NCBI GenBank assembly: GCA_031264715.1
Contig: JAISDP010000196.1
Coordinates: 1-33,002, forward strand
From: Bacteroidales bacterium
GTDB lineage: Bacteria; Bacteroidota; Bacteroidia; Bacteroidales; UBA4181
Reading direction: 5' to 3'
DNA length: 33,002 nt
The stretch's first letter is position 1. Each line of letters opens with the position of its first letter. The notes under the pieces were generated by a model that was given only the letters and a program-made list of their open reading frames with translations, was not told the DNA's origin and ran no database searches. Positions 11,246 to 30,873 of the stretch are shown piece by piece. Position numbers and translations under genes: made by a program.

Positions 11246-12427
11246 TTAATATTTTGGGACCTGCTGCCCAATAACAGACCAAACTGTTTCGGCTGCTTTT
11301 TGGGAGGGCGTCATGTCGCCGGGTTTCAATTTCAGGAGATATTGCTGCGCTTCGTCCATTTGGGCTTTTGCCTTGTCGGATTGTTGCATCAGGTCAAGTA
11401 CTTTTGGGGTGATCAACGGTTCGCGGCAGTTTTCGAGCACAAATTCGGGAATCACAAACTTGTCCGCCAGTATATTGATCAGGTTGGCATATTTTGTCCC
11501 GGCAAAATGTTTCAATATCTTGTTGGTGACGTAACCGAACCTGTAAGCGATCACATGGGGTATGCCGAAAGCCGTGAGTTCCAGCGATACCGTCCCTGAT
11601 GCGGCCAGGGCGAACATGCTTGCCTGGAAAGCGGCGTACCGTTCGTATTGTCCCATAATGATGCGGTGAGGGACTTCCAGATCGGCAAAAGCAGCTTCCA
11701 CTTCGCGGGAAATAGCAGCTACCGACGGAATCACCACATACAGGTCGGGGAACGTTTTTTTCAGTTGCAGGAGCGCCTGCCTGAAAACGGGTATCAGCCG
11801 TTTGATCTCACTGTGGCGGCTTCCCGGCAGTACCGACATCAGTGTACATTGTTCGGGTATACCGTATTTTACCTTGAAGGCAACCGGATCGTTCACTAAG
11901 TTGGCCGTGGTTTCGATAACGGGATGTCCCACGAAAGTGCAATTCAGCCCGTACTTTTCAAAATAGGGCGGTTCGTAAGGGAGTAGCGCCATCAGCCGGT
12001 CAACTAACCGGGCGACGGTTTTGGCGCGACCTTTTTTCCATGCCCACACCTGCGGCGCGACATAATGTACTTTGGGTATTTTGCAGCCTTCCTTTTTCAA
12101 CCGGGCAAGCACCTGATGTACAAAACCCCAGCTATCAACCGTTACCACCACATCGGGACGCTGCTCGCGGATATCGGCCACAACCTGTTTCACCCGCCGC
12201 AGGATGACCCGCAGTTTGGGCACCACTTCCATGATCCCCATGACGGAAATTTCGGAAATGTCGAACAGGCTTTCGAAACCCATCGCGATCATGGTTTCGC
12301 CGCCCATCCCGGCAAACCGGATGCCCGGGTCCTTATCATGCAAAGCCTGCATCAGCCTCGATGCAAGCAGGTCGCCCGACGGCTCGCCGGCAATAATGTA
12401 TACTAACTTTTGCTGTCTGTTGTCCAA
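11246..12427 (-). CDS. lpxB: Lipid-A-disaccharide synthase
   Basis: IIAGEPSGDLL, YVAPQVWAWK, FVGHP, LPGSRHSEI, ASGTVSLE, NLINIL...IPE. The start is probably TTG 12427 behind an A-rich leader; ATG 12508 is the alternative. Confidence 0.95.
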   Translation of the reverse strand: MDNRQQKLVYIIAGEPSGDLLASRLMQALHDKDPGIRFAGMGGETMIAMGFESLFDISEISVMGIMEVVPKLRVILRRVKQVVADIREQRPDVVVTVDSWGFVHQVLARLKKEGCKIPKVHYVAPQVWAWKKGRAKTVARLVDRLMALLPYEPPYFEKYGLNCTFVGHPVIETTANLVNDPVAFKVKYGIPEQCTLMSVLPGSRHSEIKRLIPVFRQALLQLKKTFPDLYVVIPSVAAISREVEAAFADLEVPHRIIMGQYERYAAFQASMFALAASGTVSLELTAFGIPHVIAYRFGYVTNKILKHFAGTKYANLINILADKFVIPEFVLENCREPLITPKVLDLMQQSDKAKAQMDEAQQYLLKLKPGDMTPSQKAAETVWSVIGQQVPKY

Positions 12428-12525
12428 ATTCTGTTTTTTGATTTGTTGCCCGAAAAGGCGCAGGAACGCAAAGAAATGACAGGAAGATAATACCGAGTGG
12501 ATATACATCCCTGCATTTTTTTGCG

Positions 12526-12556
12526 CAAAGTTACAAAATTACAAATTGTTCGCAAC
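12526..12556 (-). promoter_or_regulatory. Bacteroidetes sigma70 promoter upstream of lpxB (tandem -7 boxes)
   Basis: On the - strand, TAACTTTG (12533-12526) has a second box TAATTTTG (12541-12534) beside it, and GTTG lies 19 nt upstream of the first box. Confidence 0.6.
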
Positions 12557-12567
12557 CCCATTTTAAT

Positions 12568-13455
12568 TTAGGCATTTGCCCGCGCATCATCAATACCTTT
12601 GATGGTTTTGCGCAGGAATGTCTCGAACTGTACGGCAAACTCACGGCGATGCAAGGCAAATTCCACGGTGGTTTTCAGGAAGTCGAGCTTATTCCCGATA
12701 TCGTACCGTTTACCTTCGATTACCGACGCGATGATATTTTCCTGTTTCAGGAGCAGGCGCAAGGCATCGGTAAGTTGCACTTCGTTGCTTTTACCGCGTT
12801 CGGTACGTTCGATGGCCGGGAAAATCTGTGGCGTCAGGATGTAGCGTCCCGCTATTGCCAGGTCGGACGGCGCTTTGTCACATTCGGGCTTTTCCACCAA
12901 TTCCGACAGTTGCATGATCCGGTTGTTCAGTTGTGTGCCGCCCACAATCCCGTAGCGTGAAACCTTGTCGCGGGGAACGCGCTCCACAGCTATGGCGCAT
13001 TGGTGATACTGGTCGTAAGCGTCGACCAGTTGCTGGGTAACCGGGATCACAGAGTTGATAATGGTATCGCCCAGGAGTACGGCAAAAGGTTCGTTGCCGC
13101 AGTGGAACCGGGCATGGTAGATGGCATCGCCCAGGCCGCAGAGTTCCTTCTGGCGGATGAAATGGATATTAGCCATATCCTCGATGTGGCGGAGCTGGTT
13201 GTACAGCGTCTCGTCCTCCTGTTCCTGTATGCGCGCATCCAGTTCGGGATTCCTGTCGAAATGGTCTTCGATGGATCGCTTGCCTTTACCGGAAATAATC
13301 AAAATATCTTCGATGCCCGAATCGACACATTCCTGCACCACGTATTGGATGACGGGCGTGTCGATAATGGGCAGCATTTCCTTTGGTTGCGCCTTGGTTG
13401 CAGGCAAAAAACGAGTCCCGAGACCTGCTGCGGGGATAACTGCTTTTCTGATCAT
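12568..13455 (-). CDS. galU: UTP--sugar-1-phosphate uridylyltransferase, GalU family
   Basis: KAVIPAAGLGTRFLPATKAQPKEMLPI, IEDHFD, VEKP, GRYIL, EVQLTDA, RYDIG. Start set to ATG 13455 (MIRKAV); the upstream extension is translated repeat. Confidence 0.93.
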   Translation of the reverse strand: MIRKAVIPAAGLGTRFLPATKAQPKEMLPIIDTPVIQYVVQECVDSGIEDILIISGKGKRSIEDHFDRNPELDARIQEQEDETLYNQLRHIEDMANIHFIRQKELCGLGDAIYHARFHCGNEPFAVLLGDTIINSVIPVTQQLVDAYDQYHQCAIAVERVPRDKVSRYGIVGGTQLNNRIMQLSELVEKPECDKAPSDLAIAGRYILTPQIFPAIERTERGKSNEVQLTDALRLLLKQENIIASVIEGKRYDIGNKLDFLKTTVEFALHRREFAVQFETFLRKTIKGIDDARANA

Positions 13456-13464
13456 GTTTACGAT

Positions 13465-13556
13465 AGCGTTTGTAGCGTTTACAGCGCTCCTGGCGCTCAT
13501 AACGCTTGTAGCGCCGGGGCGCTTTACGTTATGAGCGTTCGGGCGTTATGAACGCC
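13465..13556. repeat. Degenerate 9-bp tandem repeat folding into a hairpin, between the kinase and galU
   Basis: AGCGTTTGT, AGCGTTTAC, AGCGCTCCT, GGCGCTCAT, AACGCTTGT, AGCGCCGGG at exact 9-nt steps from 13465. There is an 11-bp IR, CGCTCATAACG (13494-13504) / CGTTATGAGCG (13527-13537), with an inner AGCGCC/GGCGCT stem. Confidence 0.75.
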
Positions 13557-14551
13557 TATAATACATAAGGTTTAATTACTCTTGCATTGATTTTCCGGAG
13601 GTTTACCACTAATTTGCTCAGGGTATCATCGTCGGGATACATGCCGATGATGGCGCCTCCCGAGCCCGAAAATTTGGCCGAAGCGCCCGATAAACGCGCA
13701 ACCCGCACAAGCTCCATGTTATTTTCGGAGATATTCATGATTTTGCACCGGAGATCGAAATTGTAATTGATCAACTGGTTCAAAGTCTTGTAATCCCTGT
13801 TGATGATGGCCTGTTTGCCTTCCACTGCCACATCGCCCAGCTCGCGGATGGTCTGGTGTACCAGTTCGTCGCCATTGTTGTAGCGTTCTTTCAGGTTGTT
13901 GAATACAGGCCCCGACACTTTGCTCAGGTCGGTCTTGTAGGCCATGTACAGTTTGGGAAGCATTGCAGGGTCCAGTCGCTGATACTTGCCGTGATTGTGC
14001 TTTTCCATGTATTTCCTGTCGAAATCCATATACACGCAGCCTTCATAAACCTGTATTACCCTGTCCTGCAAGCCGGCATTGATGGACAATTCCTCGGTTT
14101 CGGCAGCAAGCACGAGACTGGGCACCACTTCAACCGGTACCTGCACGCCGTAGAACTGCATCAAGGCGCGCATGGCGGCGGTAGCGATGGCGCTGGATCC
14201 GGCCATACCTACCTGGCGCGGTATGGACGATTCGTAGCGTATGGTGAAGTTCTTGTTTGCCAGCTTGATCCGGTTCAAATCACAATATTCGCAGAAGCGC
14301 TTGATTACGGCTTTAATCAGGCGCCTGCCTCCGTAATAACCGTTTTGCCTGATGGTTTCGGTCAGATGGTATATGTTGCGGAAACTGTTCCGGTCAACCT
14401 CCATTTCCTCTATTACCAGTTCGGGAGTTTGGTACAGTGACACGATCGCCCCGAAATTCTTGACAATAATCGAAATCGTTTTTCCAAAATACCCGTCCGA
14501 CGGATTTCCCAGCAATCCGGCACGAGCATATGCCCTACATTCTATGATCAT
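13556..14551 (-). CDS. GHMP-family sugar kinase, glucuronokinase-like
   Basis: GHMP ATP loop IPRQVGMAGSSA and C-terminal KFSGSGGA. ARAGLLGNPSDGYFGKTIS, GYYGGRRL and AGLQDRVIQVYEGCVYMDF resemble plant glucuronokinase motifs as I recall them. Confidence 0.8.
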   Translation of the reverse strand: MIIECRAYARAGLLGNPSDGYFGKTISIIVKNFGAIVSLYQTPELVIEEMEVDRNSFRNIYHLTETIRQNGYYGGRRLIKAVIKRFCEYCDLNRIKLANKNFTIRYESSIPRQVGMAGSSAIATAAMRALMQFYGVQVPVEVVPSLVLAAETEELSINAGLQDRVIQVYEGCVYMDFDRKYMEKHNHGKYQRLDPAMLPKLYMAYKTDLSKVSGPVFNNLKERYNNGDELVHQTIRELGDVAVEGKQAIINRDYKTLNQLINYNFDLRCKIMNISENNMELVRVARLSGASAKFSGSGGAIIGMYPDDDTLSKLVVNLRKINARVIKPYVL

Positions 14552-14586: not shown

Positions 14587-14686
14587 CAAAAATAAGCATT
14601 TTGTTAACATGCGACGAAAAAAGACGAAAAAAGCGCATAATTGCAACCCTGTAGAGCCTGTAGAGTTTGAAAAACATTTATCTTTG
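14587..14686. promoter_or_regulatory. Divergent promoter region (kinase-galU leftward, ECF sigma rightward)
   Basis: The - strand has TATTTTTG (14594-14587) with TTCG 20 nt upstream; the + strand has TATCTTTG (14679-14686). Two perfect tandem duplications lie between them: GACGAAAAAA x2 (14613-14632) and CCTGTAGAG x2 (14648-14665). Confidence 0.6.
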
Positions 14687-14702
14687 CCAAAAAAATACGC
14701 GA

Positions 14703-15275
14703 ATGTCCGAGTTCGATTCTGTCAATATTGCTGTAAAGGAACTGAAGGACGGTAATAAAAAAACATTTGAATGGATGTTTAAAGCCTATTACCGCGGGTT
14801 GTGTTTTTATGCAGAAGGGATCGTTGGGGAGAAAGAAGCCGCCGAAGAAATCGTAAGCGATTTCTTTATGAAATTATGGGAGAATCACGAAATCATACAC
14901 ATCACCACTTCATTGCAGGCCTATTTGTATAAAGGCATCTACAACAACAGTCTGAAATATCTGGAACACATTAAAGTATTAAATAAATACCGCGGATATG
15001 GCCGGTATATGGCTACTAACCACGACTTATTCCAACCGCAGGCCGATCAGCCTTTATCCATGCTGATATCCCGGGAGACGGTGGCCGAAATAGAAAATGC
15101 CATAGACGCCTTGCCCGCACAATGTAAGGAAGTATTCTCCCTGGCGCGTCTGGAAGGATTAAGTTATCAGGAAATAGCAGAAAAATTAGATATTTCCATT
15201 AATACAGTTCGTACACAGATCACCCGCGCAATGACTAAACTGCGGGAATCACTTGGAAAATTGATAAAAAATTAA
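14703..15275 (+). CDS. ECF RNA polymerase sigma-70 factor (Bacteroides expansion type)
   Basis: AEEIVSDFFMKLWE, AYLY, LPAQCKEVFSLARLEGLSYQEIAEKLDISINTVRTQITRA (region 4 HTH). Start ATG 14703 lies downstream of the -7 box. Confidence 0.93.
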   Translation: MSEFDSVNIAVKELKDGNKKTFEWMFKAYYRGLCFYAEGIVGEKEAAEEIVSDFFMKLWENHEIIHITTSLQAYLYKGIYNNSLKYLEHIKVLNKYRGYGRYMATNHDLFQPQADQPLSMLISRETVAEIENAIDALPAQCKEVFSLARLEGLSYQEIAEKLDISINTVRTQITRAMTKLRESLGKLIKN

Positions 15276-15292
15276 AAAAATTTATTTTCCCT

Positions 15293-15323
15293 GTCACATC
15301 TTTTTTGTCCTAACCGGTCTTAT
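15293..15323 (+). promoter_or_regulatory. Possible ECF-dependent promoter directly downstream of the sigma gene
   Basis: GTCAC, a T-rich spacer, then GGTCTTAT. Position and form resemble motifs that follow PUL ECF genes; this is inference only. Confidence 0.3.
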
Positions 15324-15685
15324 AATGTGATCGGCTTATCCGGTGAAGGATAACCCGTATCACATATCTGTAAAAAGTTATTCAAAATAAATCACTTAAC
15401 CTGTTTTGCCAATGGAGTAATCTGCAAGTAAATTAAAATACTGATCCTTTGCGAAAATAATAGATGTTTCGTAGAGGAGGAAAATTATAATTAAGAGATG
15501 CGAAATAAACAAGAAAGATATAACGGCTTTATGATGTGATGTGTAGCAAACAGTGCGTCGAATGTGTGTACATTGGACAGGATGCAACAACATTGAACAT
15601 TTATATCATTGATGTGTTATTTATTTTTCATCCCTAAAGAGAATTATACGAGCGAATTTTATAACAAATCTTAAATTACGGTTTT

Positions 15686-18600
15686 ATGCAAAAACTATTA
15701 GAAAATAGATTTTTCAAATTGAATGGCGAGGCTTTAAAACTATTGGGTTTATTGCCTGTCATGGTTTTTATGTTATCTGCTCCTTTATACGGGCAGGATG
15801 CACGCCAGATAACAGGCGTGGTGAAGAGCGCTGATGGCGAAACGATGCCAGGCGTAAACGTGGTTGAGCGAGGGACAACCAACGGTATAGCAACCAATAT
15901 TGACGGACAGTATTCTATCAGAGTCCCCAACAACGATACGGTCGTTTTGATTTTTTCGTCCGTTGGCTATGACCGTCAAGAGATTACCATTGGGAATTTG
16001 AGGACTGTCAATGTTGTGATGAACGAATCGAGCCAGCAACTTGACGAAGTGGTGGTAGTAGGTTATGGTATTCAGTCAAAAGCGAGTGTCGTGGGATCTA
16101 TTGTGCAAGCTTCCGGAGACGATTTGAAACGTGCAGTGAGCGGTTCCGATATTACTGCTGCTTTATCCTCGCAATTGCCGGGGGTTATCTCCTTGACGTC
16201 TTCGGGCGAACCGGGTGGAATCCTTACCGGGGAAAGTTCGACCAACCTCTATATTCGCGGGCAAAATACATGGAACAACTCAGGTCCGCTGGTACTTGTC
16301 GACGGGGTTGAACGCCCCTTAATGAGCGTTGATCCCAACGAGGTTGAATCGGTTTCGGTTTTGAAAGATGCTTCGGCAACAGCTGTTTACGGGGTAAAAG
16401 GCGCCAACGGCGTACTTCTTATCACTACCAAACGCGGAATCGAAGGTAAGACTAAATTGTCTGTCAATTATACGGCAACAGGAATCATGTTGTCTAAATT
16501 ACCCGGAATGTTGGATTCCTATGACGCTTTGATGGCAAAAAATGAAATGATAGAACGCGAGGTTTCTCTTCGCGAAGCCTCGTGGGCTGATTATACTCCG
16601 TACGAAGTCGTGGCGCGTTACAAGTACAGGCAATCGCCTGAAGACAAGTATATTTTTCCGAATGTTGACTGGAAAGATGAGATGTTCAAAAAGATGGGAT
16701 TTCAGCATCGGGTAAACGTCAATGCACAGGGCGGAAACAAGACGATCAAGTATTTTGGTCAACTGTCCTATTTATACGAAGGCGATATGATGAAGAAGTA
16801 TGACAACGGTAAGGGATATGACCCAAGTTATGCCGCCAACCGTTTCAATTTCAGAAGCAATATTGATGTTAACCTGACAAGTACTACGAAATTTAAAATG
16901 AACCTGGCAGGATCATTCAGTCAAAAGAATACCAATTATAATAACACCGGTTCTACCGGTCGTGCTGACCAATGGATGTGGGCTGCCGTATACGGTTTGG
17001 CGCCGGATTTATTCCCTGCACAGTATCCCGACGGGTATTGGGGCGCTTATTCCGAGGGAGGTAACAATACCGTAAATCCCGCAGCAGTTGTTGCCAATAT
17101 GGGCGTGCGCAAAGCGCGGGAAACCCAGTTGCAGTCCAATTTCGTGCTGGAGCAGGATTTGAAAATGATTACCAAAGGTTTGAATGCGGCGGTAACGCTG
17201 GCTTTTGATAACAGGATACGATCTGAAGGCGGTATTTACGACGTTGCCAATCATGGCAGGCCCGGCGAAGAAGCGACAAATATTGCTTACAGGCAGATTT
17301 ATCCTTCCAGGTATCTTGAAAATCCGGATGATGAGAGCTATTATACCGTATATTTGCCCGCCTCTTCAGGCGACTACGACTGGTATGTGCGCCCGTGGAG
17401 CATCCGCCAGGAGGGAGTCGCTACAGGTCTGGAAAATAGCTGGACGAGCAGATTGCCGGTCGACAGGTTTTTAATGTATCAGTTTCAATTAACTTATGCA
17501 CGAAAATTTGGCAGTCATTCGGTAGGGGCGACAGGAGTATTCAAACGGGAAGAAAGCGCTAAGGGAGCCGAATTTAAACGTTACAGGGAAGACTGGGTTT
17601 TCCGCGTCACCTATGATTACGCTTCGCGCTATATGTTCGAGTTCAACGGCGCTTATAACGGTTCCGAAAAATTCGGTCCGGGTTACCGGTTCGACTTTTT
17701 CCCGTCGTTAGGACTGGGATGGTATATCTCAAACGAACGCTTTTTCTCGAATATCAAATGGGTCGATCGTCTTAAAGTACGGTACAGCATAGGTATAGCA
17801 GGGGCTGACGATGCAGGCGGCAGATATCTTTATGAACAGCAGTATGCATACGGCGGCGCTGCCCATTTGGTCTATAATGCCAATAACAATAGCCCGTATT
17901 CCTTTTACCGCATCGCCAGCAAAGCCAATCCCGATGCCCGGTGGGAACAGGCTTTGAAGACCAATTACGGTTTGGAATTCGGCATATTGAAAAACCTTGT
18001 TTCATTGAGTTTTGATTACTTTACCGAAAACCGTACCGACATTTTGATTGCCGGAAACAACAGGTCTGTTCCGGTATATTATGGATTCAGTCCGCCTGCG
18101 GTCAATTCGGGTCAAGTTAAATCGAACGGGTTCGAAATAGAGTTGGGGCTTAACAAATCCATTAATAAAGACATTGATGTCTGGGCGAAATTTTCGTTAA
18201 CGCATACCCGGAATAAGGTTATATTCAGGGATGACCCGCCTCTGGCCGATGATCACATGAAAGCCCAGGATTTTAGGATTGGCCAAAATAAGAGAGTGCT
18301 GAACACCGGATATTTTTACAATAACTGGGATGAGGTATGGGCGAGCGCGCCTACTGAAACCAACGATCTCCAAAAGCTTCCGGGTTATTATGACCAGATT
18401 GATTACGATGGCAATGGCGTCATTAGCAGTACTTACGATTCAGCTCCGGTGGGATATTCCGAAGTGCCTGAAAATACAGGCAGTTTGACGCTGGGCGCGT
18501 CATACAGGGGGCTGTCCTTCACTATCCAGTTCTTTGGGGCGAACAATAGCAACCGTTACATTGGCTGGGATAATTACCGGAACAATACGAATGTTGTATA

Positions 18601-18940
18601 TGATCATGTAGGCAATTACTGGTCGAAAGACAATCCGAATGCAAGTTCATTTCTTCCCCGGTGGCAAACGTATGCGGAAAACATCGGACACTATTATCTG
18701 TACGATGCTTCCTTTATCAGATTACAAAATGTAGAGTTGGGTTATTCTTTCTCCAATGCCGGATGGGCTAAAAAGGCAGGAATTTCCAATTTAAGGATTT
18801 TTATGAACGGCAATAATTTGTTTTTTTGGTCGAAATTACCTGACGACCGGCAAACAACCTATTCCGGTGCGGGCAGTGCAACCGAGGGTTCATATCCTTC
18901 CACCAGGAGAATCAATTTAGGAGTAGAAATATCATTTTAA
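15686..18940 (+). CDS. susC: SusC/RagA-family TonB-dependent transporter (first)
   Basis: [57 protein letters not shown], C-terminal GVEISF. No STN-type N-terminal extension is visible. Confidence 0.96.
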   Translation: [1084 protein letters not shown]

Positions 18941-18960
18941 CAAAGAAAAACTGAATAAAA

Positions 18961-20775
18961 ATGAAAAGGATAATCGATTATATATCTATTGCCGTTGTTG
19001 CATTATGTTTTACTTCGTGCGAGGAATACCTGGACAGACCATCGCAGTCGAATATTACGGAAAGGGATATCTATGTAAATTTCAGGAGTTTTCAAGGTTT
19101 TGTAGAAGAATTGTACAACTGTATTATCAGTCCGAGCGAATGTGGCGCATGGAACAATTATTCGTTTGCCGATGAAAACCTGGGGCCAAGGATTTACAAT
19201 TTTGACACCGGTAATTATTGGGGTGGCGAAACGTATTTCCACAACAATGGCAATCAGGCTGTAAGTACCACGGATGGTCAATCCAGGACCAAGCGCATCT
19301 GGGAATATGCGTGGTATGCTCTCGCCAAAGCAAATATTGTGCTGGATAAAATCGAAGAGGAAGATTTGTTTGCAGGTAACGCGGATGAAAAAAAATTGAT
19401 CCGCGGACAGGCGCTTTTTTTCAGAGGGTGGTTCTATTTTGAAATATGCCGTTTCTGGGGCGGGATGCCTTATATTGACAGGCCGCTGACTGAAACGGAA
19501 AATTACGAAGACCCTTATTTTCAAAGAATGAACTTTCGGGAGACAGCGCTGAAAATGGCGGCTGATTTCAGGGAAGCGGCTGATTTGTTGCCTGAACACT
19601 GGGAAGATATGTATGGAAAAGCGGACGGCGTTCCACAGGGAAGGAATGACAACAATCAATACATCAACAAGTTTCATGCCCTGGGGTATCTTGGTAAGGC
19701 TTTACTGTTTGCCGCCAGTCCGATGATTAACGAGGAAGCCACCGGCGTTAACGCATTTGACCCGGCGCTGTGCGCCCAGGCAGCTGACGCTTTTGGCGAA
19801 CTGTTGACGCTTGCCGAAAATACCAACAGGTATACGCTGGCGTCGTGGAATGAGTACAATCAGATTTTTTTCTGCGCAAACCGGAACGCCGCTCCCTACC
19901 GGAACGGCTTGAATGAAGTGATCATGCTGCCCACGACTTATGACGCAACACGGTTCAGATGGTCTACAATAGGCGCGATATCTCCTAACGACATGGGGTT
20001 GAATGCAGGCTCCAGCGCTGATGTGCCGACACATAACATTGTCAAAAATTTCGCCACAGCGAATGGACTTCCGCAAGCAGAGGACCCTGCTTTTGATCCG
20101 CAAAAACCATGGACTAATCTTGAGCCTCGTTTTTATAAGGTTATTGCGAAGCACGGCGATAAAATACACAATGGAACGACGGGACGACAGGTTCTTGAAT
20201 GTCAAAACGGCGGATTCCACCGCACAATACAGTATCCGACCGTTACCGGGTATTACCAGAGGAAGTTCAGCGGATTGGATCCGAATGCTTACAGGGCTTC
20301 GCCCGATTGTTATGCGGCTGCTCCTTACCTGAGGCTTGCAGATGTTTACCTGATGTATGCCGAAGCGGTAAATTTCATGACGGGCGGCGGACCCAAAGCG
20401 AAAACCGGCAATTATTCCAAAACTGCCGAGGATGCATTGAACATGGTAAGGCAGCGCGCCCAGATTCCGACTGTTGATCCCAAATATACGGCTGATAAAA
20501 ATGTGTTTTTTGAGGAGCTTGTCCGTGAAAGAGCGGTAGAATTATTTATGGAAGGCGCCCGCTTTTGCGATTTGCGACGCTGGAGCAGAAACGATGATCC
20601 GCGTTACCTGGAAAAAACAGGGATATATTTTGATTTAGACGGCAATGGTGAACCTGTCGCAGTTAGAGAGCAAGTTATTACTAAAAGGGCGGCTGATAAA
20701 AAACACAACTGGTTGCCTGTCATAACGAAATACACTACGATGTACAGTACTTTTCCGCAAAATCCAGGATGGTAA
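18961..20775 (+). CDS. susD: SusD/RagB-family glycan-binding lipoprotein (first)
   Basis: Lipobox FTSC-EEYLD, GQALFFRGWFYF, YLRLADVYLMYAEA, RERAVELFMEGARFCDLRRW, and QNPGW terminus. Confidence 0.95.
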   Translation: MKRIIDYISIAVVALCFTSCEEYLDRPSQSNITERDIYVNFRSFQGFVEELYNCIISPSECGAWNNYSFADENLGPRIYNFDTGNYWGGETYFHNNGNQAVSTTDGQSRTKRIWEYAWYALAKANIVLDKIEEEDLFAGNADEKKLIRGQALFFRGWFYFEICRFWGGMPYIDRPLTETENYEDPYFQRMNFRETALKMAADFREAADLLPEHWEDMYGKADGVPQGRNDNNQYINKFHALGYLGKALLFAASPMINEEATGVNAFDPALCAQAADAFGELLTLAENTNRYTLASWNEYNQIFFCANRNAAPYRNGLNEVIMLPTTYDATRFRWSTIGAISPNDMGLNAGSSADVPTHNIVKNFATANGLPQAEDPAFDPQKPWTNLEPRFYKVIAKHGDKIHNGTTGRQVLECQNGGFHRTIQYPTVTGYYQRKFSGLDPNAYRASPDCYAAAPYLRLADVYLMYAEAVNFMTGGGPKAKTGNYSKTAEDALNMVRQRAQIPTVDPKYTADKNVFFEELVRERAVELFMEGARFCDLRRWSRNDDPRYLEKTGIYFDLDGNGEPVAVREQVITKRAADKKHNWLPVITKYTTMYSTFPQNPGW

Positions 20776-20801
20776 AAGAATGTATTGTCTAATTATTAAT
20801 A

Positions 20802-23800
20802 ATGTATCAAATGAAAAATAAGATATTATATTCAGTTCTTTTTCTATTAATGTTTTGTACTTGTCATACTTATGCGCAAAGTGAACCGGGCAGCATTAGC
20901 GTTTCATCCATCGTTTCCGATACGGATGGAAATCCTGTAGAAAATGTCGAAATCTTCAGTGATCCGGCTTATGCCAAAACCGGAGCCGACGGACAGTTTA
21001 CGATTTCGGTATCGCCGGACGCCCTTTTAATCATAAAGGCAAACGGATATCAGACGGTTAAGTTGCTGGCGGGGGATGTTCAGAACATGTCGAATATCAG
21101 TCTCGCAAGTAATGACTTATTATACGGTAAAAAAATAAACCTGGCTTTCCGTCAATCTTATCAGGGTGATCTGACAGGCGCTGTAACATACGTTGACGCC
21201 GATGAAATACTGAAATACGACGAAACAGGCGCTTCCGGTCTTCTGAGTAACAGAACCCTGGGCATGTTGGGTTCCAATCAGATAAGGGGATTGGGGGTTA
21301 ATTTCGACGTTGGCAATATCATGACTGTTTCTACCCAGGGAACAGCGGCCATGGTTGTTGTAGACGGTATTCCGCGGGAATTGACCTATTTGCGCGCGTC
21401 CGAGATTGAAAGCATCACGGTTTTGAAAGATGCGAATGCGGCAGTTCTTTACGGAACAGCGGCAGCCAATGGCGTGATTCTGGTCACTACAAAGAGAGGA
21501 GAAGCCTATAAGAAGCAGGCTGACTTTAAGGTAACATACGGTATCAATAAGCCGATGGCGTTCCCCAAGTTTTTAAATTCGGCGGATTATATGGAGTATT
21601 ACAATCAGGCGCGCCGAAACGATCAACTGGATGCCGTGTTCACGGATATCGACAATTACCGTTCGGGTGATCCATATCGTTATCCAAACGTCGACTATTT
21701 CTCAAGGGATTATTTAAGGCCGTTCTACAGGTCTTTTAACGCCGAAGGGCAATTTTCAGGAGGGAACAGTGTGGCAAAATACTATTCAAATTTTGGATGG
21801 AACAATCAAAACACCATATACAGTTTCGGCGAAGGCAAAGATTCGCGAACAAACGAGTTCCATGCACGATTGAATGGCGATTTGAAAATTAACAGCTGGA
21901 TCAATACCCGGCTTGACGGAAGTGTGACTTTTCAAAATCAAGTTGTGCCGCGTATCTCCGCCAGTGACGGTTATTGGGCTGCGGCGCGCAGCATCCGCCC
22001 GTACGAATATACTCCGCTGATCCCCATAGACCTGATTGAACCGGATAATCCGGTATTGGAGTCCGCCAAGAGAATCATCGACGGGAAGTATCTTTTAGGA
22101 GGATCCGACGCTTACCGCACAACACCCATTGGCGATATGTATGGCGCCGGCGAAAGTGAAATCGGATTTCGTAACTTTTCGTTAGGTAACCAGATTAATT
22201 TTGATTTTAACCAATGGATAGAAGGATTGACATTAAATACCAATTTCGGTTTCGATTTCTGGTCGGGGTTTTCAACAACAGTTGCCAATATCTATGCCAC
22301 CTATTTTCCAACTTTCGATAACAACAACAGGATTACCGGCTTGCAGAAATTCAATGCCGACGAAGCGGCAACCTCTCCGCTGATTGAAGGAATTGCACTA
22401 AGGAGACGGTTTGGGTATAACCTGTCATTGCAATACGACAAGATGTTTGATGATATACACCACATTACGGCAATCCTTCTTGGATACGGCAATACGTACA
22501 AACAGTCGGGCGACCTGCAAGGGTCAAAGTTCGCGCATTTGGGCTTGCATTTGGGGTATATCTACAACAAGCGCTATATGATTGATTTCAGCAGCGCTTA
22601 CGTCAATTCGACACGGCTTGCGCCGGGGCACCGGGGCGGTTTTTCGCCTACGGCAGGGCTGGCCTGGGTAATGAGTTCCGAAGAGTTTATGTCCTCGGCA
22701 GATTTTATTGATTATTTGAAAATAAGGTTTTCGGCAGGTATCATTAAATCGGACCTCATGACCTCAAACAACTCCGCTCCCGGCTATTTCTGGTATGACG
22801 ATAATTATGGAGGTTCCACATCCTGGGGTTGGGGCGACGGGCTACGAAGCCGCAGCAGTACGATCGCAAACAGAACGCGTAATTTTGATATGACCTTTGC
22901 TGAACGTAAAGATTTGAACCTTGGTTTTGAATCGCTGTTGTTTGGGAACAGGTTGGGTTTGGAAGCCAATTATTTTCTTACTTTAAACGAAGGTATGCTT
23001 GTGCGCTCGACAAACGAGTATCCCAGTTTCCTGGGCACCTTTGTGCCGTACGAAAACTTCGAAAATGTGAAATACCAGGGCTTCGAACTTGGAGCGAGCT
23101 ATGTAGAGAAATGGAATGACTGGTCGTTGAGGGTTGGAGCCAATTTGCTGTATTCTGTCTCGGTAAAAACCAAAGTTAACGAATTGCGTGCCTACCCGCA
23201 TTTGAACAGGGTGGGAACGCCTCACGACGGTTATTGGGGATTGGTAAGTCTCGGCTTTTTCGAGAATCAGGCAGACGTAGACAACAGTACGCCGCAGGTT
23301 TTTGGAGGCACAGTACGCGAAGGCGACCTTAAATATCAGGCGCAGAAAGAGAATGGAAGAATTGACACTGATGACGAAGTTCTTTTGGGACGCTGGCAGG
23401 CTCCGTGGTCGGGAGGTATAAATTTTACGCTGTCCTACAAAAAAATCTCGCTTTTTGTGATAGGTGAAGGCCGTTCCGGCGCCAAGCCGTTTAAGGAAAA
23501 TAATTATTTCTGGCTGGAAGGCACGCGTAAATACTCCGAAGTGGCATTAAACAGTTGGACGCCTGAAACAAGAAATACCGCTGTCTATCCCAGACTGTCG
23601 TCCCAGTCGAATCCAAACAATAACCGCCGCTCAACATTTTGGCAGTATAATGCTGATTACTTTGAAATCAGCAAAATACAGTTGAATTATCAGATGCCCG
23701 AATTGTTGACCAGCGCCTTGCACATGAAAAGTTTGGATGTATTCGCTTATGTAACCCGTCCGCTCATTCTTGCTAAAGAAAAAGAAATGAGGTTAATTCA

Positions 23801-23864
23801 AACTGGAAACAGCGGCGGATTGAATTATCGCTCCTTTGTGTTCGGTTTGAAAGTTTCTTTCTAA
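20802..23864 (+). CDS. susC: SusC/RagA-family TonB-dependent transporter (second, divergent)
   Basis: VVVDGIPR, IESITVLKDANAAVLYGTAAANGVILVTTKRG, YPRLS, C-terminal GLKVSF. It lacks the typical EVVVVGYG segment. Start is 20802 or 20811. Confidence 0.93.
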   Translation: MYQMKNKILYSVLFLLMFCTCHTYAQSEPGSISVSSIVSDTDGNPVENVEIFSDPAYAKTGADGQFTISVSPDALLIIKANGYQTVKLLAGDVQNMSNISLASNDLLYGKKINLAFRQSYQGDLTGAVTYVDADEILKYDETGASGLLSNRTLGMLGSNQIRGLGVNFDVGNIMTVSTQGTAAMVVVDGIPRELTYLRASEIESITVLKDANAAVLYGTAAANGVILVTTKRGEAYKKQADFKVTYGINKPMAFPKFLNSADYMEYYNQARRNDQLDAVFTDIDNYRSGDPYRYPNVDYFSRDYLRPFYRSFNAEGQFSGGNSVAKYYSNFGWNNQNTIYSFGEGKDSRTNEFHARLNGDLKINSWINTRLDGSVTFQNQVVPRISASDGYWAAARSIRPYEYTPLIPIDLIEPDNPVLESAKRIIDGKYLLGGSDAYRTTPIGDMYGAGESEIGFRNFSLGNQINFDFNQWIEGLTLNTNFGFDFWSGFSTTVANIYATYFPTFDNNNRITGLQKFNADEAATSPLIEGIALRRRFGYNLSLQYDKMFDDIHHITAILLGYGNTYKQSGDLQGSKFAHLGLHLGYIYNKRYMIDFSSAYVNSTRLAPGHRGGFSPTAGLAWVMSSEEFMSSADFIDYLKIRFSAGIIKSDLMTSNNSAPGYFWYDDNYGGSTSWGWGDGLRSRSSTIANRTRNFDMTFAERKDLNLGFESLLFGNRLGLEANYFLTLNEGMLVRSTNEYPSFLGTFVPYENFENVKYQGFELGASYVEKWNDWSLRVGANLLYSVSVKTKVNELRAYPHLNRVGTPHDGYWGLVSLGFFENQADVDNSTPQVFGGTVREGDLKYQAQKENGRIDTDDEVLLGRWQAPWSGGINFTLSYKKISLFVIGEGRSGAKPFKENNYFWLEGTRKYSEVALNSWTPETRNTAVYPRLSSQSNPNNNRRSTFWQYNADYFEISKIQLNYQMPELLTSALHMKSLDVFAYVTRPLILAKEKEMRLIQTGNSGGLNYRSFVFGLKVSF

Positions 23865-23894
23865 TTGTTTTCGAATAAATTAAATAATGTTGAA

Positions 23895-25709
23895 ATGAAG
23901 AATTATAAATTTATACTACCCGGGGTTATTTTCATCATGTTATTTTCCTGCCAGTTGCTTGAGCCGGATAATGAAAACTATAGCACTTTTGACCGTGTTT
24001 ATGAAGACCCCGCCTTTGCCGAAGGTCTTTTAATACGCGGATTTATCCAGGTTCCTGTCAGGGATTACAGGTATGATGAACGTGCAACGGACGACGCTGT
24101 GACCAACGATTTAGCCAATGATTATGTCAGGATGGCAACAGGCGGCTGGTCGTCTCAGTATAATCCCCAGCATGTATGGCAAAATTGCAATGACGGGATC
24201 ATGTATGTTAACAAATTTCTGGAAATTGTGGACAAGGTGCCGTTCAGACCTTCCAATCCTGATATAGACAGGATGTACAAGCGGCGCTATAAGGGAGAAG
24301 CGTATGCCATCAGAGGTATTTTGAAATATTATCTGTTGCGTAATCATGGCGGATATGGCGCCAATGGAGAATTGCTGGGAACGCCGATATACGATGAGTT
24401 TATGGAATACACCGACAAGTCTAAATTTTCCCAGCCCCGTGCAAAATTTGTCGACTGTGTGCAAACTGTATATGACGATCTCGACATGGCGGTTTCACTA
24501 CTTCCGCTCGACTTTGGCAATGTAACTGCCGGCATTGGAATACCGCCGGGCTACAATGAATCAGGCAATGCGACCATAGACGATTACAATCTGGTTTGCG
24601 GACGTACTGCAAGTGAACGTGTTTCGGGACGTATTGCGTTGGCTTTTAAGGCAAAAATGGCATTACTCCACGCAAGTCCTGCATTTAACGAAGGCAATAG
24701 CGCTTTGTGGGAAAAAGCAGCCGAGTTTTCGGGCGAACTGCTGTCCAAACCGAATGTTATTTACAGTTCCGCTTTTCAGGGCGGGCTGGATATTGATCCC
24801 AACGGCCATCGCTTTTATGCCTCTACCGAAGTCGCTAAATATAATTGGAATACTCCTGTTACCGGAAAAGAATATGTGTGGAGAAAAAACAGGGAAAACA
24901 ACAATACAAAAGAAACGGAGCATTATCCTCCAACCTTTGGGGGCAATGGACGGATCAATCCTTCGCAAAATTTTGTGGACGCGTTTCCTATGGCAAACGG
25001 TTATCCCATCACTGCTGATCCTTCACTTTCGGGGTATGATCCGGCAGCGCCCTATACGGGGAGGGATTCGCGGCTTGGGCTGTTTGTGCTGTATAATGGC
25101 GCAAGTTTTAAAAGCAATACCGTTTACACTGCCATTGACGGAACCGGGACACATGCCGGGGATAACCGGCTGGGCATGGCAGCCAGATCGACACGGACAG
25201 GCTATTATCTGAAAAAACTGCTGGTGGACAATAATGTTACATGGAACGGGTCCAGTTGGAATACGGCTGATCATATTGAAGGCTATGTTCGTTACACCGA
25301 AATGTTTTTGACATATGCCGAAGCAGCTAACCAGGCGTGGGGGCCTGACGGAGTTTCGCAGTCCTACAATTATTCAGCACGTCAAATCATTGGAGAAATT
25401 CGCAAGCGTGCAAATCCCGGAATAGGCGCTGATCCTTATTTGGCGTCGCTCGACAAAGAAGGGATGATTACATTGATTCAAAATGAAAGGCGCATTGAAC
25501 TGAGCTTTGAAAGTCATCGTTTTTGGGATTTGCGTCGCTGGAACAAGACCGACCTGATGAAAGAATCCGTCAGGGGTGTAAGGTGGGAAGGCGGAATACC
25601 ATCGTACTTTGATGTAGAAAGCAGAGATTATGAGGATTATATGATTTATGGCCCTGTTCCCCAAACGGAAATCCTTAAATTCAACTTTATTCAAAACCGG
25701 GGTTGGTAA
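23895..25709 (+). CDS. susD: SusD/RagB-family glycan-binding lipoprotein (second)
   Basis: Lipobox LFSC, GEAYAIRG, VDAFPMANGYPI, RYTEMFLTYAEAAN, NERRIELSFESHRFWDLRRW, QNRGW. Start set to ATG 23895 (MKNYK). Confidence 0.95.
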   Translation: MKNYKFILPGVIFIMLFSCQLLEPDNENYSTFDRVYEDPAFAEGLLIRGFIQVPVRDYRYDERATDDAVTNDLANDYVRMATGGWSSQYNPQHVWQNCNDGIMYVNKFLEIVDKVPFRPSNPDIDRMYKRRYKGEAYAIRGILKYYLLRNHGGYGANGELLGTPIYDEFMEYTDKSKFSQPRAKFVDCVQTVYDDLDMAVSLLPLDFGNVTAGIGIPPGYNESGNATIDDYNLVCGRTASERVSGRIALAFKAKMALLHASPAFNEGNSALWEKAAEFSGELLSKPNVIYSSAFQGGLDIDPNGHRFYASTEVAKYNWNTPVTGKEYVWRKNRENNNTKETEHYPPTFGGNGRINPSQNFVDAFPMANGYPITADPSLSGYDPAAPYTGRDSRLGLFVLYNGASFKSNTVYTAIDGTGTHAGDNRLGMAARSTRTGYYLKKLLVDNNVTWNGSSWNTADHIEGYVRYTEMFLTYAEAANQAWGPDGVSQSYNYSARQIIGEIRKRANPGIGADPYLASLDKEGMITLIQNERRIELSFESHRFWDLRRWNKTDLMKESVRGVRWEGGIPSYFDVESRDYEDYMIYGPVPQTEILKFNFIQNRGW

Positions 25710-25727
25710 TTTAAAAAAACAAGTAGC

Positions 25728-26783
25728 ATGAAAAAATTAATTATTTTAATGATTGCAGTAATCATCGGAAGCAACGCATGTAAAAATTTCGATGTAGAGT
25801 ATAACGATTATAAATATTCCACCGCTTACTTCGGATATCAATTTCCGGTAAGGATTTTGATTCTTGGTGATTATATCTATGACAACTCAAACGACAATGC
25901 GCACAAATTTGTCATTTCGGCGCATCTGGGAGGTGTAATCGATAATAAAACAGACAGGAAGTTTTCCATCGAAGTAGACGAAAGCCTGTGTAACGGTGTG
26001 GTTTTTGCGACCGGGGATCCGGTAGTAGCAATGCCTGCATCGTGGTATACATTAAGTTCCTCTTCGGAGTTGATCATACCAAAAGGCAGGCAGGACGGAG
26101 GCATTGAAGTGCAATTGACCGAAGCCTTTTTTGCCGATCCAAATTCCATCAGGAACACGTATGCAGTTCCCATCCGTTTGAAGGGTTCTAACGATGTCGA
26201 CAGCATCCTGTCGGGCAGGAAGGACAATGCTTATCCCAATCCCGATCCGCGCCTGGCAGAACAATGGGTAGTTTCACCCAAAGACTTTGTCATGTTTGTT
26301 GTGAAATACATCAACGAATATGAAGCATCCTATCTGAAATATGGAACAAGTACGGTATCGCAGGCAGGCGGAACAACCGAAACTACGACCTATAAGGAAA
26401 AATGGGTAGAACGTAATGACGTTGTAAAACTGCGTACCACCGGACGCAACACTGTTGAGGGAGAATTTAGCCTCCAGTCGGGCATCATGACCGGAAATGT
26501 TCTCCTGACACTGGATTTTAACGGAGTTCACAACGGCAAAAACAACTGTACTGTTACCGGAGTCGGCTTGGGAAATACAAATTATTCGGTTACCGGGACG
26601 GGAACGTTCAAAACCTTCGATACGGAATATGACAATTTTGGACAGAAAATCCGACAGGGTATGACGATAAACTATACCGTTACCGACGGAAACACCGGCG
26701 ACACCTACACTGCGGAGGAGACGCTGGTAGTACGCAGCCGTGATGTAGTTCTTGAAACATACTCTGTGAGGCCAACTCCTTAA
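25728..26783 (+). CDS. PUL surface lipoprotein (DUF1735/BT_3987-like N-terminal domain plus DUF5627-like C-terminal domain)
   Basis: Lipobox SNAC-KN, AYFGYQFPVRILILG, VQLTEAFFADP, YAVPIRL, and its position after susD. Confidence 0.75.
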   Translation: MKKLIILMIAVIIGSNACKNFDVEYNDYKYSTAYFGYQFPVRILILGDYIYDNSNDNAHKFVISAHLGGVIDNKTDRKFSIEVDESLCNGVVFATGDPVVAMPASWYTLSSSSELIIPKGRQDGGIEVQLTEAFFADPNSIRNTYAVPIRLKGSNDVDSILSGRKDNAYPNPDPRLAEQWVVSPKDFVMFVVKYINEYEASYLKYGTSTVSQAGGTTETTTYKEKWVERNDVVKLRTTGRNTVEGEFSLQSGIMTGNVLLTLDFNGVHNGKNNCTVTGVGLGNTNYSVTGTGTFKTFDTEYDNFGQKIRQGMTINYTVTDGNTGDTYTAEETLVVRSRDVVLETYSVRPTP

Positions 26784-26844
26784 ATTTTTCCTGCAAATAT
26801 TCCTGATTTAACCTGAATTTGATAAATTTAATTTAATTTTGAAT

Positions 26845-27005
26845 CCCTTTGACCGGGAAGACAAAGACCCTTTGCTCGGGAAGACAAAGACCCTTTGCTC
26901 GGGCGGACAAAGACCCTTTGCTCGGGCGGACAAAGATCCTTTGACCGGGGGGGCAAAGACCCTTTGACCGAGGGGGCAAAGACCCTTTGACCGGGAAGGT
27001 AAAGA
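26845..27005. repeat. Seven exact-length 23-bp tandem units, CCCTTTG-(ACC/CTC)-purine-rich N7-CAAAGA
   Basis: Units: ccctttgaccgggaagacaaaga, ccctttgctcgggaagacaaaga, ccctttgctcgggcggacaaaga x2, tcctttgaccgggggggcaaaga, ccctttgaccgagggggcaaaga, ccctttgaccgggaaggtaaaga. The junctions form the dyad CAAAG-N3-CTTTG. Confidence 0.95.
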
Positions 27006-27146
27006 CCTGTGATAAGCGGAATATAGCGCTGTTGAGCCGAATTTGCAATTCGGCTCGGAACACGAGGCAATTTGCAATTGCCTGTGATAAGACCTCGGAG
27101 GCGGGACGTAGAACTCCCGCTCCCGGAGGTTTTAGAAACCTCCGGG
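27006..27146. repeat. Cluster of four REP-like hairpins
   Basis: GAGCCGAATT-TGC-AATTCGGCTC (27034-27056); AGGCAATT-TGC-AATTGCCT (27065-27083); GCGGGA-N8-TCCCGC (27101-27120); CCCGGAGGTTT-TAG-AAACCTCCGGG (27122-27146). CCTGTGATAAG is a direct repeat at 27006 and 27081. Confidence 0.8.
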
Positions 27147-27213
27147 GTTTCACTTGACCAAATCAAAATGTAATATCGTCAGAATCCTCTTAAAAAACCA
27201 AAAATCAAATTCT

Positions 27214-28797
27214 ATGCAGAAATTAGTATATACCGTTCTAATCTTCTTTTTACCCAGTCAATTTGCATTATCCGGACAGGGTTCGAATAACGTTCATATT
27301 TCCGTTGCATCCGGCGCTGTAACCGGTGGCGAAAAAGTTATATATTACAGCGAATACGGAGCTGTGGGCGACGGCGTAACCGACGACTTTGACGCAATCA
27401 TCAAGGCTCATGCCGAAGCGAATGAGGCGGGACTGAAAGTGAGCGCCGACGCGGGCGCAACATACTATATTGGCGGGGCGGACAAAACCGCCTTGATACA
27501 GACTGATACCGACTGGGGCGATGCCAGGTTCATTATCGACGACACGAAAGTCGAAAACCGGAATGTGCAGATATTCAAGCTTTCGTCCAAACTTCCCCCG
27601 ATTCAGGTAACGACCGTGAAAACGCTTGGAAAAAACCAGAAGAAGCTCGATCTGTCGCTTCCGTATCGCTCATTTATAACAGTAACCGACAATACGACAA
27701 AACGCTATATACGCTTTGGATTGAACCAGGACACAGGCTCTTCCCAGACGGACGCATTTGTCGTCGACAAAAAGGGAAAAGTAGATATGAAAGCCCCGAT
27801 CATATGGGACTTTAACAATATCAGCACGATGACGGCTTACCCGATCGACGCCAAAATACTGACCATTCGCGGAGGACATTTCACGACCGTTGCCAATCAG
27901 GATGAATCACGGTACACGTACTATTCCAGAGGCATTGGCGTAATGCGTTCCAATGTGGTAATCGACGGGGTCAGTCACGTGATCACGGGAGAACTTGATC
28001 ACGGCGCTCCGTATGGCGGTTTCCTTACAATATCGAATTGCACCGGCGTGACGGTGCAAAACTGCAAGTTGTCGGGACACAAGACCTATGTTACCATTGG
28101 CGCGGCAAATGCGCCGGTTTCGATGGGATCCTACGACATATCGGTTGGCAGGTCTACCAATGTGACATTCAAAAACTGTAAACAGATAAACGATATACAT
28201 GACACGAAATTATGGGGAATTTTCGGCTCGAACTATTCAAAAAATATTACATTCGATGCGGTAGAGTTTTCACGCTTCGATGCGCACATGGGTGTGGTAA
28301 ACGCGACAATAAAAAATTCGATTCTCGGACACCAGGGCATCAATATCATAGGGAGCGGCGTATTCCTCATAGAGAACACCAAAGTGTGCGCGACGAACTT
28401 CATAAATTTGCGCAGCGACTATGGCAGCACGTTTGAAGGCGAGTTCATTATAAAAAATTGCGAATATGTTCCGCGCAACGCTGCACAGTCCGATGCTGTC
28501 CTGATAAGTGGCAGCTATTCGGGCAAGCATGATTTCGGGTATACGTGCCATATGCCGCGAAAAATAACGATTAACGGTCTTGTAATAAACGATAGCAACC
28601 CTGTCGACAACTACCGGGGACCGAAAATTTTTGCACCTTTCAACAATGAGTATACGAGTGAAGCATATGAAGAAAAATACCCTTATGTAATCACCAGGGA
28701 AGTTGAAATACGAAATATGACCGTCAAAAGCGGTAAAAAATATCTCATAAGCAACAATCCGTTTATGTTCCGGAACGTCCGGATAACGGAACGATAA
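27214..28797 (+). CDS. Secreted right-handed beta-helix protein, putative polysaccharide hydrolase or lyase
   Basis: Signal peptide from ATG 27214 (MQKLVYTVLIFFL), YSEYGAVGDGVTDDFDAIIKAH, and beta-helix rungs (ISNCTGVTVQNC, NVTFKNC, NITFD, RFDAH). Confidence 0.75.
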   Translation: MQKLVYTVLIFFLPSQFALSGQGSNNVHISVASGAVTGGEKVIYYSEYGAVGDGVTDDFDAIIKAHAEANEAGLKVSADAGATYYIGGADKTALIQTDTDWGDARFIIDDTKVENRNVQIFKLSSKLPPIQVTTVKTLGKNQKKLDLSLPYRSFITVTDNTTKRYIRFGLNQDTGSSQTDAFVVDKKGKVDMKAPIIWDFNNISTMTAYPIDAKILTIRGGHFTTVANQDESRYTYYSRGIGVMRSNVVIDGVSHVITGELDHGAPYGGFLTISNCTGVTVQNCKLSGHKTYVTIGAANAPVSMGSYDISVGRSTNVTFKNCKQINDIHDTKLWGIFGSNYSKNITFDAVEFSRFDAHMGVVNATIKNSILGHQGINIIGSGVFLIENTKVCATNFINLRSDYGSTFEGEFIIKNCEYVPRNAAQSDAVLISGSYSGKHDFGYTCHMPRKITINGLVINDSNPVDNYRGPKIFAPFNNEYTSEAYEEKYPYVITREVEIRNMTVKSGKKYLISNNPFMFRNVRITER

Positions 28798-28851
28798 TAA
28801 ATAAGCATCTTTTTTAAGCCTGAAAGTAGAATTAACCAAACATATATCGAA

Positions 28852-30801: not shown

Positions 30802-30873
30802 TCCGGCATGAATATCCATCGGAAAATTAGCTGTAACGTAAGTATCACACATAAATTCATAATTTTATCACAC

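Follow-up and report, generated by a model that had tools for sequence, protein, structure and literature searches.

A glucuronokinase-family kinase paired with a variant GalU in Bacteroidales: a probable salvage route from glucuronate to UDP-glucuronate

Our analysis concerns two adjacent genes of a Bacteroidales bacterium, one for a GHMP kinase and one for a GalU-like uridylyltransferase, and their probable role in the salvage of D-glucuronate (GlcA) to UDP-glucuronate (UDP-GlcA). The window, that is the whole stretch of DNA analysed, is a single contig of 33,002 nucleotides (nt) (JAISDP010000196.1 of assembly GCA_031264715.1; C157 in our numbering) from a genome bin of 2.86 Mb that is 57% complete, and the nearest homologues bear the names of Bacteroidales metagenome-assembled genomes. 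Open reading frames (ORFs) together with Pfam and NCBIfam matches place the kinase and the GalU-like gene in a co-directional minus-strand trio with lpxB. The two genes in question were delimited as follows.

13556..14551, minus strand: glucuronokinase-family GHMP kinase by sequence, 331 amino acids (aa) (ORF, Pfam, family similarity, quick tree)
12568..13455, minus strand: predicted variant GalU-type sugar-1-phosphate uridylyltransferase, 295 aa (TIGR01099, alignment with YngB)
13500..12568, minus strand: full open extent of the GalU ORF (ORF list)

The ATG at 13455 is the likely start of the GalU gene because the family match begins at 13452 and the alignment with YngB of Bacillus subtilis begins at MIRKAV. 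This start gives a spacer of 100 nt between the two genes (55 nt if GalU started at the ATG at 13500), and the ORFs thereby confirm the arrangement of two co-directional genes described in the first-pass annotation of this DNA.

The kinase carries both GHMP domains above their Pfam gathering scores (GHMP_kinases_N, PF00288, E 9e-13; GHMP_kinases_C, PF08544, E 4e-06). In our comparisons, the characterised plant and zebrafish enzymes were represented by named orthologues from Ambrosia and Takifugu. The window kinase shares 43% identity over 319 aa (E 2e-91) with the kinase domain of the Takifugu "glucuronokinase with putative uridyl pyrophosphorylase" and 43-47% identity with both copies in an Ambrosia glucuronokinase, while its best relatives of solved structure in the PDB, heptose kinases (E 6e-11) and mevalonate kinases (1e-06), score far lower. 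No NCBIfam model came near its cut-off on the kinase, the best being that for mevalonate kinase with 60.7 bits against 163, and the model for Fkp (NF009948) reached 20.1 bits against a cut-off of 721. A resemblance of four kinase motifs to plant glucuronokinase had been pointed out before, and it holds residue for residue in our alignments: GNPSD..G, IPRQ.G..GSSA and AGLQDRV.QVY are identical in the fish and plant enzymes, and the kinase motifs vary little or not at all among 26 bacterial members. The family comprises 488 representatives at E <= 1e-30 in a 50%-identity library, and many close relatives carry the JGI label "glucuronokinase". One protein of 783 aa, P0233, is 62% identical to the kinase over 60% of the latter's length and also contains methionine-synthase-type domains (PF02607, PF00809 and PF02310), either as a genuine fusion or through an artefact of assembly or gene calling.

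For a quick maximum-likelihood tree, 16 bacterial and 10 eukaryotic family members were combined with 10 other GHMP kinases from three kinase-bearing genomes, namely homoserine kinase (ThrB), IspE, galactokinases (GalK) and one unassigned type. The glucuronokinase-like sequences, window kinase included, formed one 26-row clade (SH-aLRT 95, stem length 3.7) with ThrB, IspE and GalK outside, so that the kinase groups with the eukaryotic glucuronokinases and apart from galactokinase, as had been anticipated; the similarity scores likewise set it apart from mevalonate and heptose kinases. Within this clade the eukaryotic glucuronokinases form one subclade (support 98) and the bacterial sequences lie outside it. 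Judged by its sequence, the window kinase is a member of the glucuronokinase family, whose plant and zebrafish representatives were reported to be specific for GlcA (PMC2823444, PMC3938481).

The partner protein contains the NTP_transferase domains PF00483 and PF12804 only, and Pfam found no UDPGP domain (PF01704), the domain of UDP-sugar pyrophosphorylase (USP), in it. Against the NCBIfam model TIGR01099 (galU) it scores 363.3 bits, with a cut-off of 326.8 (363.6 bits in the genome search). Its nearest relative of solved structure is B. subtilis YngB (E 2e-91), a proven UDP-glucose pyrophosphorylase (UGPase; PMC7961091). All nine residues listed for YngB as binding uridine, diphosphate or Mg2+ (Ala13, Gly14, Lys28, Glu29, Gln105, Gly110, Asp133, Glu191 and Lys192; PMC7961091) are identical in the aligned window GalU. 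The sugar-contacting Asp, however, is missing: Thr131 of the window GalU takes the position of YngB Asp134, which is listed as a glucose contact (PMC7961091), and of D131 in Pseudomonas PaUGP, which binds glucose and whose Ala mutant was nearly inactive (PMC11796359). Furthermore, the His of the GLGH motif is replaced by Asp.

The two genes occur together far more widely than in the window. Of 400 complete Bacteroidota genomes sampled evenly, 8 have the kinase, and the same 8 and no others have a GalU-type gene (TIGR01099, E <= 1e-88); two further genomes gave only weak TIGR01099 matches of 142-151 bits. The genes are adjacent in seven of the eight, four with the order kinase-GalU and three with the reverse order, and in the eighth they lie on different contigs, where GalU keeps the variant signature described below. 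Among 31 relatives, the window's genome being one of them, the kinase is present in 13 and GalU in 12 (adjacent pair on one contig in 12, a partial kinase only in 1, neither gene in 18), and within the window's genus the pair is present in 7 of 14 other genomes; such related genomes are not independent, and these co-occurrence counts overstate the number of independent events. A wider scan with one genome per species returned at least 586 stretches that encode the kinase. Of the 80 best loci, which were analysed, 62 have a same-strand GalU beside the kinase at a gap of 4-497 nt, 48 of them downstream and 14 upstream. These 80 loci span Bacteroidales, Cytophagales, Ignavibacteriales, Calditrichaceae, Acidobacteriota, Planctomycetota, Verrucomicrobiota, Gemmatimonadota and others. 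The conservation of adjacency for which the first-pass annotation had proposed a check was therefore found in Bacteroidota and in several other phyla, and it is accompanied by co-variation of the two genes in presence and absence.

Moreover, the two kinds of domain also occur in one polypeptide. Of the 120 longer homologues among the matches listed, six (P0148, P0166, P0128, P0132, P0133 and P0151) combine the kinase with a GalU-type domain. This domain shares 33-37% identity with the window GalU (E 1e-42 to 1e-52) and has Cys at the sugar-contact position in five of the six. The remaining 114 gave no match to the window GalU better than E 0.02. Look-alike fusion clusters are placed in Bacteria by a protein atlas, which we take as a lead only. 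In one protein of eukaryotic source (P0126, 976 aa), the kinase is fused to a USP-type PF01704 domain instead. The adjacency of kinase and GalU is far beyond chance, and because two gene orders, several phyla, gain and loss within a genus, and fusion all agree, we regard the two genes as functionally paired.

We then compared the active-site signature between GalUs linked to a kinase and control GalUs without a kinase next to them, taken from 25 loci of a second phylum and from one acidobacterial genome. Among the kinase-linked GalUs, 67 could be read: 46 carry Thr, 20 Ser and one Ala at position 131, and 60 carry Asp and 7 His at position 110. All 26 unlinked controls carry Asp at position 131. 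The discriminating change is thus the residue after the Mg-binding Asp, LGD-T/S in linked versus LGD-D in ordinary GalUs. As a test of prediction, 78 genomes of the second phylum were searched for the kinase, which was found in four, all among the five genomes with a GDT-type GalU (genes adjacent in two, on other contigs in two), and in none of the 25 genomes whose read GalU locus is GDD (15 further GalU-positive genomes fall outside this count). Two genomes hold a canonical and a variant GalU together, as expected for paralogues with different jobs. A quick GalU tree is compatible with a single origin of GD(T/S), but its set of canonical rows is narrow, 12 of 13 of them coming from one phylum.

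On this evidence we propose, with a probability of roughly 65%, that the pair forms one operon which would salvage free D-glucuronate to UDP-glucuronate in two steps. The GHMP kinase would phosphorylate the anomeric hydroxyl (GlcA + ATP -> GlcA-1-phosphate, GlcA-1-P), as expected from its family membership and from what its plant and zebrafish relatives do. A specialised GalU paralogue, in which Thr or Ser stands in place of the sugar-contacting Asp of ordinary GalUs, would then carry out GlcA-1-P + UTP -> UDP-GlcA + pyrophosphate, a step to which linkage, co-occurrence and the active-site change point. The resulting UDP-GlcA could feed users such as UDP-xylose synthase (UXS). We infer GlcA and GlcA-1-P as the substrates of the two enzymes, and the physiological role of the pair likewise; with activities so assigned, computation supports the earlier suggestion of a route from glucuronate to UDP-GlcA. 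A broader proposition, whose chances we consider evenly balanced, is that the GD(T/S) GalUs may be distinct, widespread and dedicated GlcA-1-P uridylyltransferases (EC 2.7.7.44) whose specificity would have been switched by loss of the sugar-contact Asp, that together with the bacterial glucuronokinase they would constitute a salvage module in at least several hundred species, and that the eukaryotic glucuronokinases would be one offshoot of the bacterial family. A survey of orphan enzymes from 2007 reportedly includes the EC 2.7.7.44 activity. Combining an anomeric kinase with a pyrophosphorylase for salvage is a known type of pathway; what would be new here is the recruitment of a different pyrophosphorylase family. 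The first-pass annotation knew of no characterised bacterial example, and our literature search, with subscription journals mostly outside it, likewise found no characterised bacterial glucuronokinase or GalU-type GlcA-1-P uridylyltransferase. The genes themselves had not gone unnoticed: besides the JGI label, a 2009 paper mentions homologues in "a few bacteria" (Solibacter, Dyadobacter and Verrucomicrobium), without studying them (PMC2823444).

Gene neighbourhoods are in line with UDP-GlcA as the product. At one locus with a kinase 77% identical to that of the window (L012), a same-strand gene 31 nt upstream matches human UDP-glucuronate decarboxylase (E 5e-122). At five Planctomycetota loci, a short-chain dehydrogenase/reductase (SDR) directly follows the pair; its best solved relative, 5U4Q, was deposited as a dTDP-glucose 4,6-dehydratase, and its next-best, the 6ZL6 series and MoeE5, we take to be UDP-GlcA 4-epimerases, on which the depositors' names are silent. 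NCBIfam matches of the neighbouring SDRs all stayed under the cut-offs. By sequence, the neighbouring UXS and the epimerase-like SDR would fit UDP-GlcA as the product. Two Sedimentisphaerales loci (L057 and L058) have the pair and an epimerase-like gene followed by a GDP-mannose 4,6-dehydratase within a larger nucleotide-sugar gene cluster.

The pair appears alongside the routes that bacteria were said in the first-pass annotation usually to rely on, UDP-glucose dehydrogenase (Ugd) for synthesis and UxaC for catabolism, so that salvage is an addition to them and not a replacement. All five complete kinase-bearing genomes tested encode UxaC and nucleoside-diphosphate (NDP)-sugar dehydrogenases, in three of them with such a dehydrogenase beside a UXS homologue. 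Ugd-like genes are present in 29 of the 31 relatives irrespective of GalU, so GalU is not needed for UDP-glucose here. In the window's own genome, tblastn detected UxaC (62% identity) and a family search one partial NDP-sugar dehydrogenase; tblastn found no Ugd, UXS or myo-inositol oxygenase (MIOX), absences that mean little in a genome 57% complete. Because kinase-bearing genomes also have UxaC and NDP-sugar dehydrogenases, and Ugd-like genes occur with or without GalU, the kinase-GalU pair is an accessory salvage branch, neither the sole source of UDP-GlcA nor the source of UDP-glucose. Even within one genus some genomes have the module and others do not, and it sits beside the de novo Ugd and catabolic UxaC routes.

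As to the origin of the glucuronate, MIOX was considered as a general source and rejected. Of the 400 Bacteroidota genomes, 30 have strong homologues of it (E about 1e-92 to 1e-112), whereas the 14 control genomes have none, and MIOX is found in 2 of 8 kinase-bearing genomes versus 28 of 392 others. Since only two of the eight have it, a plant-like inositol route is not the rule, and we consider glucuronate set free by polysaccharide breakdown the likelier input. Two side observations concern UDP-glucose itself. PF01704 was detected in one of five kinase-bearing genomes, away from the pair, and in 0 of 14 control genomes including Bacteroides thetaiotaomicron. Moreover, 392 of 400 Bacteroidota genomes are without a GalU-type gene, yet Ugd-like dehydrogenases are near-universal in the relatives; the searches for GalU-type genes (400 genomes) and for PF01704 (5 + 14 genomes) identified no UDP-glucose-making enzyme in most Bacteroidota.

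Several observations, to which the non-independence of related genomes and the lack of a tie between MIOX and the kinase belong, weigh against salvage of glucuronate by this pair. The window GalU scores above the curated cut-off for its family, retains the residues that bind uridine, phosphate and Mg, and may still use glucose 1-phosphate (Glc-1-P). Position 131 varies among true GalUs, being Val at the equivalent place in an active Klebsiella GalU (PMC11796359), and a lost Asp alone is compatible with UGPase activity. Of the two peculiarities that had been singled out in the window GalU, GLGDAI and LLGDTI, both are present, but only the second proved diagnostic; GLGD also occurs in 6 of 25 unlinked GalUs. 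Eighteen of the 80 loci lack an adjacent GalU, one of them having no contig room left, and no sugar-1-phosphate nucleotidyltransferase was found among 84 neighbouring ORFs at 16 of these 18 loci (L033 and L060 were outside the scan); the only recurrent neighbour there is a D-Tyr-tRNA deacylase in Bryobacterales-type loci. In four of five genomes of other phyla reached via their loci, the linked GalU is the sole GalU-type gene, and in such cases a dual role is possible. Finally, the window GalU shows no significant similarity to the N-terminal nucleotidyltransferase domain of Takifugu GKUP (BLASTP E 0.34), and for GKUP the activity of the pyrophosphorylase domain could reportedly not be demonstrated in vitro (PMC3938481).

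These points leave room for other explanations. Linkage, co-occurrence and fusion show that the two proteins work together and do not reveal on what, so the pair might act on another sugar (galacturonate, 4-O-methyl-glucuronate, or neutral glucose or xylose) and yield a different UDP-sugar. A promiscuous GalK and a Glc-1-P uridylyltransferase are reported to salvage xylose in Solitalea canadensis (PMC11267548), and in our quick tree the bacterial kinases lie outside the eukaryotic clade. We nevertheless consider this unlikely: both characterised branches, plant and fish, were reported GlcA-specific (PMC2823444, PMC3938481), the bacterial kinases are about equally similar to the two (43-47%) and share the family motifs, the adjoining UXS and epimerase-like SDR point to a UDP-uronic acid, and the exchange of an acidic contact residue for Thr or Ser would suit an acidic substrate better than a neutral one.

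It is distinctly unlikely, in our view, that GalU is simply the organism's UDP-glucose pyrophosphorylase, with the GlcA-1-P of the kinase going elsewhere and adjacency reflecting shared regulation or co-transfer. The GalU bearers among the 400 Bacteroidota genomes are exactly the kinase-bearing ones, genus-mates without GalU keep their Ugd-like genes, there are genomes in which a variant GalU is kept beside the kinase in addition to a canonical one, GalU-kinase fusions exist, and GlcA-1-P is used by no other known pathway according to PMC3938481. All this stands against the TIGR01099 score above cut-off, the proven UGPase activity of the closest solved relative, the several genomes in which the linked gene is the only GalU-type gene, and the reported Glc-1-P specificity of E. 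coli-type and eukaryotic UGPases (PMC12203929). A fortuitous adjacency of functionally unrelated genes could account for the 18 loci without the neighbour and for the Bacteroidota genome with the genes on different contigs; with both gene orders kept across phyla, perfect co-variation of presence and absence in two samples, and fused forms, we consider it very improbable. Salvage of glucuronate to UDP-GlcA is the reading we prefer.

Further features of the locus bear on its expression and surroundings.

14587..14594, minus strand: TATTTTTG, candidate Bacteroidota -7 promoter box (pattern search, TAnnTTTG), 36 nt before the kinase ATG
13474..13556, minus strand: predicted intercistronic stem-loop in the kinase-GalU spacer (RNA fold)
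12526-12541, minus strand: two tandem TAnnTTTG boxes between the GalU stop and the lpxB start (pattern search)
12508..11246, minus strand: lpxB, co-directional with kinase and GalU
14667-32742, plus strand: polysaccharide-utilisation-type cluster, divergent from the kinase (domain content)

A single promoter upstream of the kinase had been recognised in the first-pass annotation, and this is borne out in part. TAnnTTTG, which we take to be the Bacteroidota-type promoter box consensus, occurs before the kinase, and the pattern search found none in the spacer; across the window, however, the motif is unenriched (29 found versus 24 expected). A sigma-70-type scan returned 5 sites versus 3.2 +/- 2.3 expected, and the second hexamer of its best site falls within the kinase ORF. 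With one box before the kinase, none in the spacer and two before lpxB, the positions weakly suggest a single kinase-GalU transcript and a separate promoter for lpxB. As a conserved linkage partner lpxB was rejected, since it is found in 0 of 80 related loci. The spacer stem-loop has a predicted stability of -44.3 kcal/mol (z -4.69), equalled by none of 200 shuffles. It has no U tract, a scan for terminator-like sites gave none there, and no second copy was found in the 57%-complete genome. The spacers of the closest relatives are shorter (51 nt in L011, 75 nt in L014). The divergent cluster encodes an ECF (extracytoplasmic function) sigma factor, two SusC/SusD pairs, a DUF5627/BT_3987-like protein and two heparinase II/III-like proteins, a domain content that suggests a uronic-acid-containing glycan as its target.

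UDP-glucuronate is the donor for capsules, glycosaminoglycan-like polymers, and xylose and arabinose derivatives. To our knowledge, bacterial UDP-glucuronate is taken to come only from UDP-glucose dehydrogenase. If the proposed pathway is true, bacteria that release glucuronate from glucuronoxylans, host glycans or glucuronides would be able to reuse it directly, without NAD+ or UDP-glucose, and a gene would be assigned to a uridylyltransferase activity for which no dedicated bacterial enzyme is on record. In addition, many annotations as "GalU" could then be corrected by means of the one-residue signature LGD-T/S versus LGD-D. The bacterial enzymes might also serve as compact catalysts for the chemoenzymatic synthesis of UDP-GlcA, for which the Arabidopsis kinase was used in the papers we found.

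Compared with known systems, the window GalU resembles B. subtilis YngB in scoring above the TIGR01099 cut-off and in keeping the uridine-, diphosphate- and Mg2+-binding residues; unlike YngB, it has Thr for Asp134 and Asp for the GLGH His, and its location and distribution are bound up with those of a glucuronokinase. Bacteroides Fkp and the GalK/GPUT xylose pair of Solitalea likewise salvage a free sugar by means of a GHMP kinase and a pyrophosphorylase, with other kinase subfamilies, another nucleotide or sugar, and another partner enzyme. Zebrafish GKUP has a homologous kinase domain (43% identity to the Takifugu orthologue) and was described as physically coupling it to a nucleotidyltransferase (PMC3938481). 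It is, however, a fusion whose nucleotidyltransferase domain is dissimilar to the window GalU (E 0.34), whereas the window has two genes and GalU-type fusions are found elsewhere. A parallel in logic is the plant myo-inositol oxygenase pathway with Arabidopsis GlcAK (EC 2.7.1.43, K16190) and USP, which shares with the window the kinase family and its motifs (43-47% identity to a plant member) and the two steps of an anomeric kinase followed by a uridylyltransferase. In contrast to the plant pathway, MIOX is inconsistently present in kinase-bearing genomes, the window genes would form an operon, and the partner of the kinase is a GalU-type protein of about 295 aa (PF00483) in place of the plant USP of about 600 aa (PF01704).

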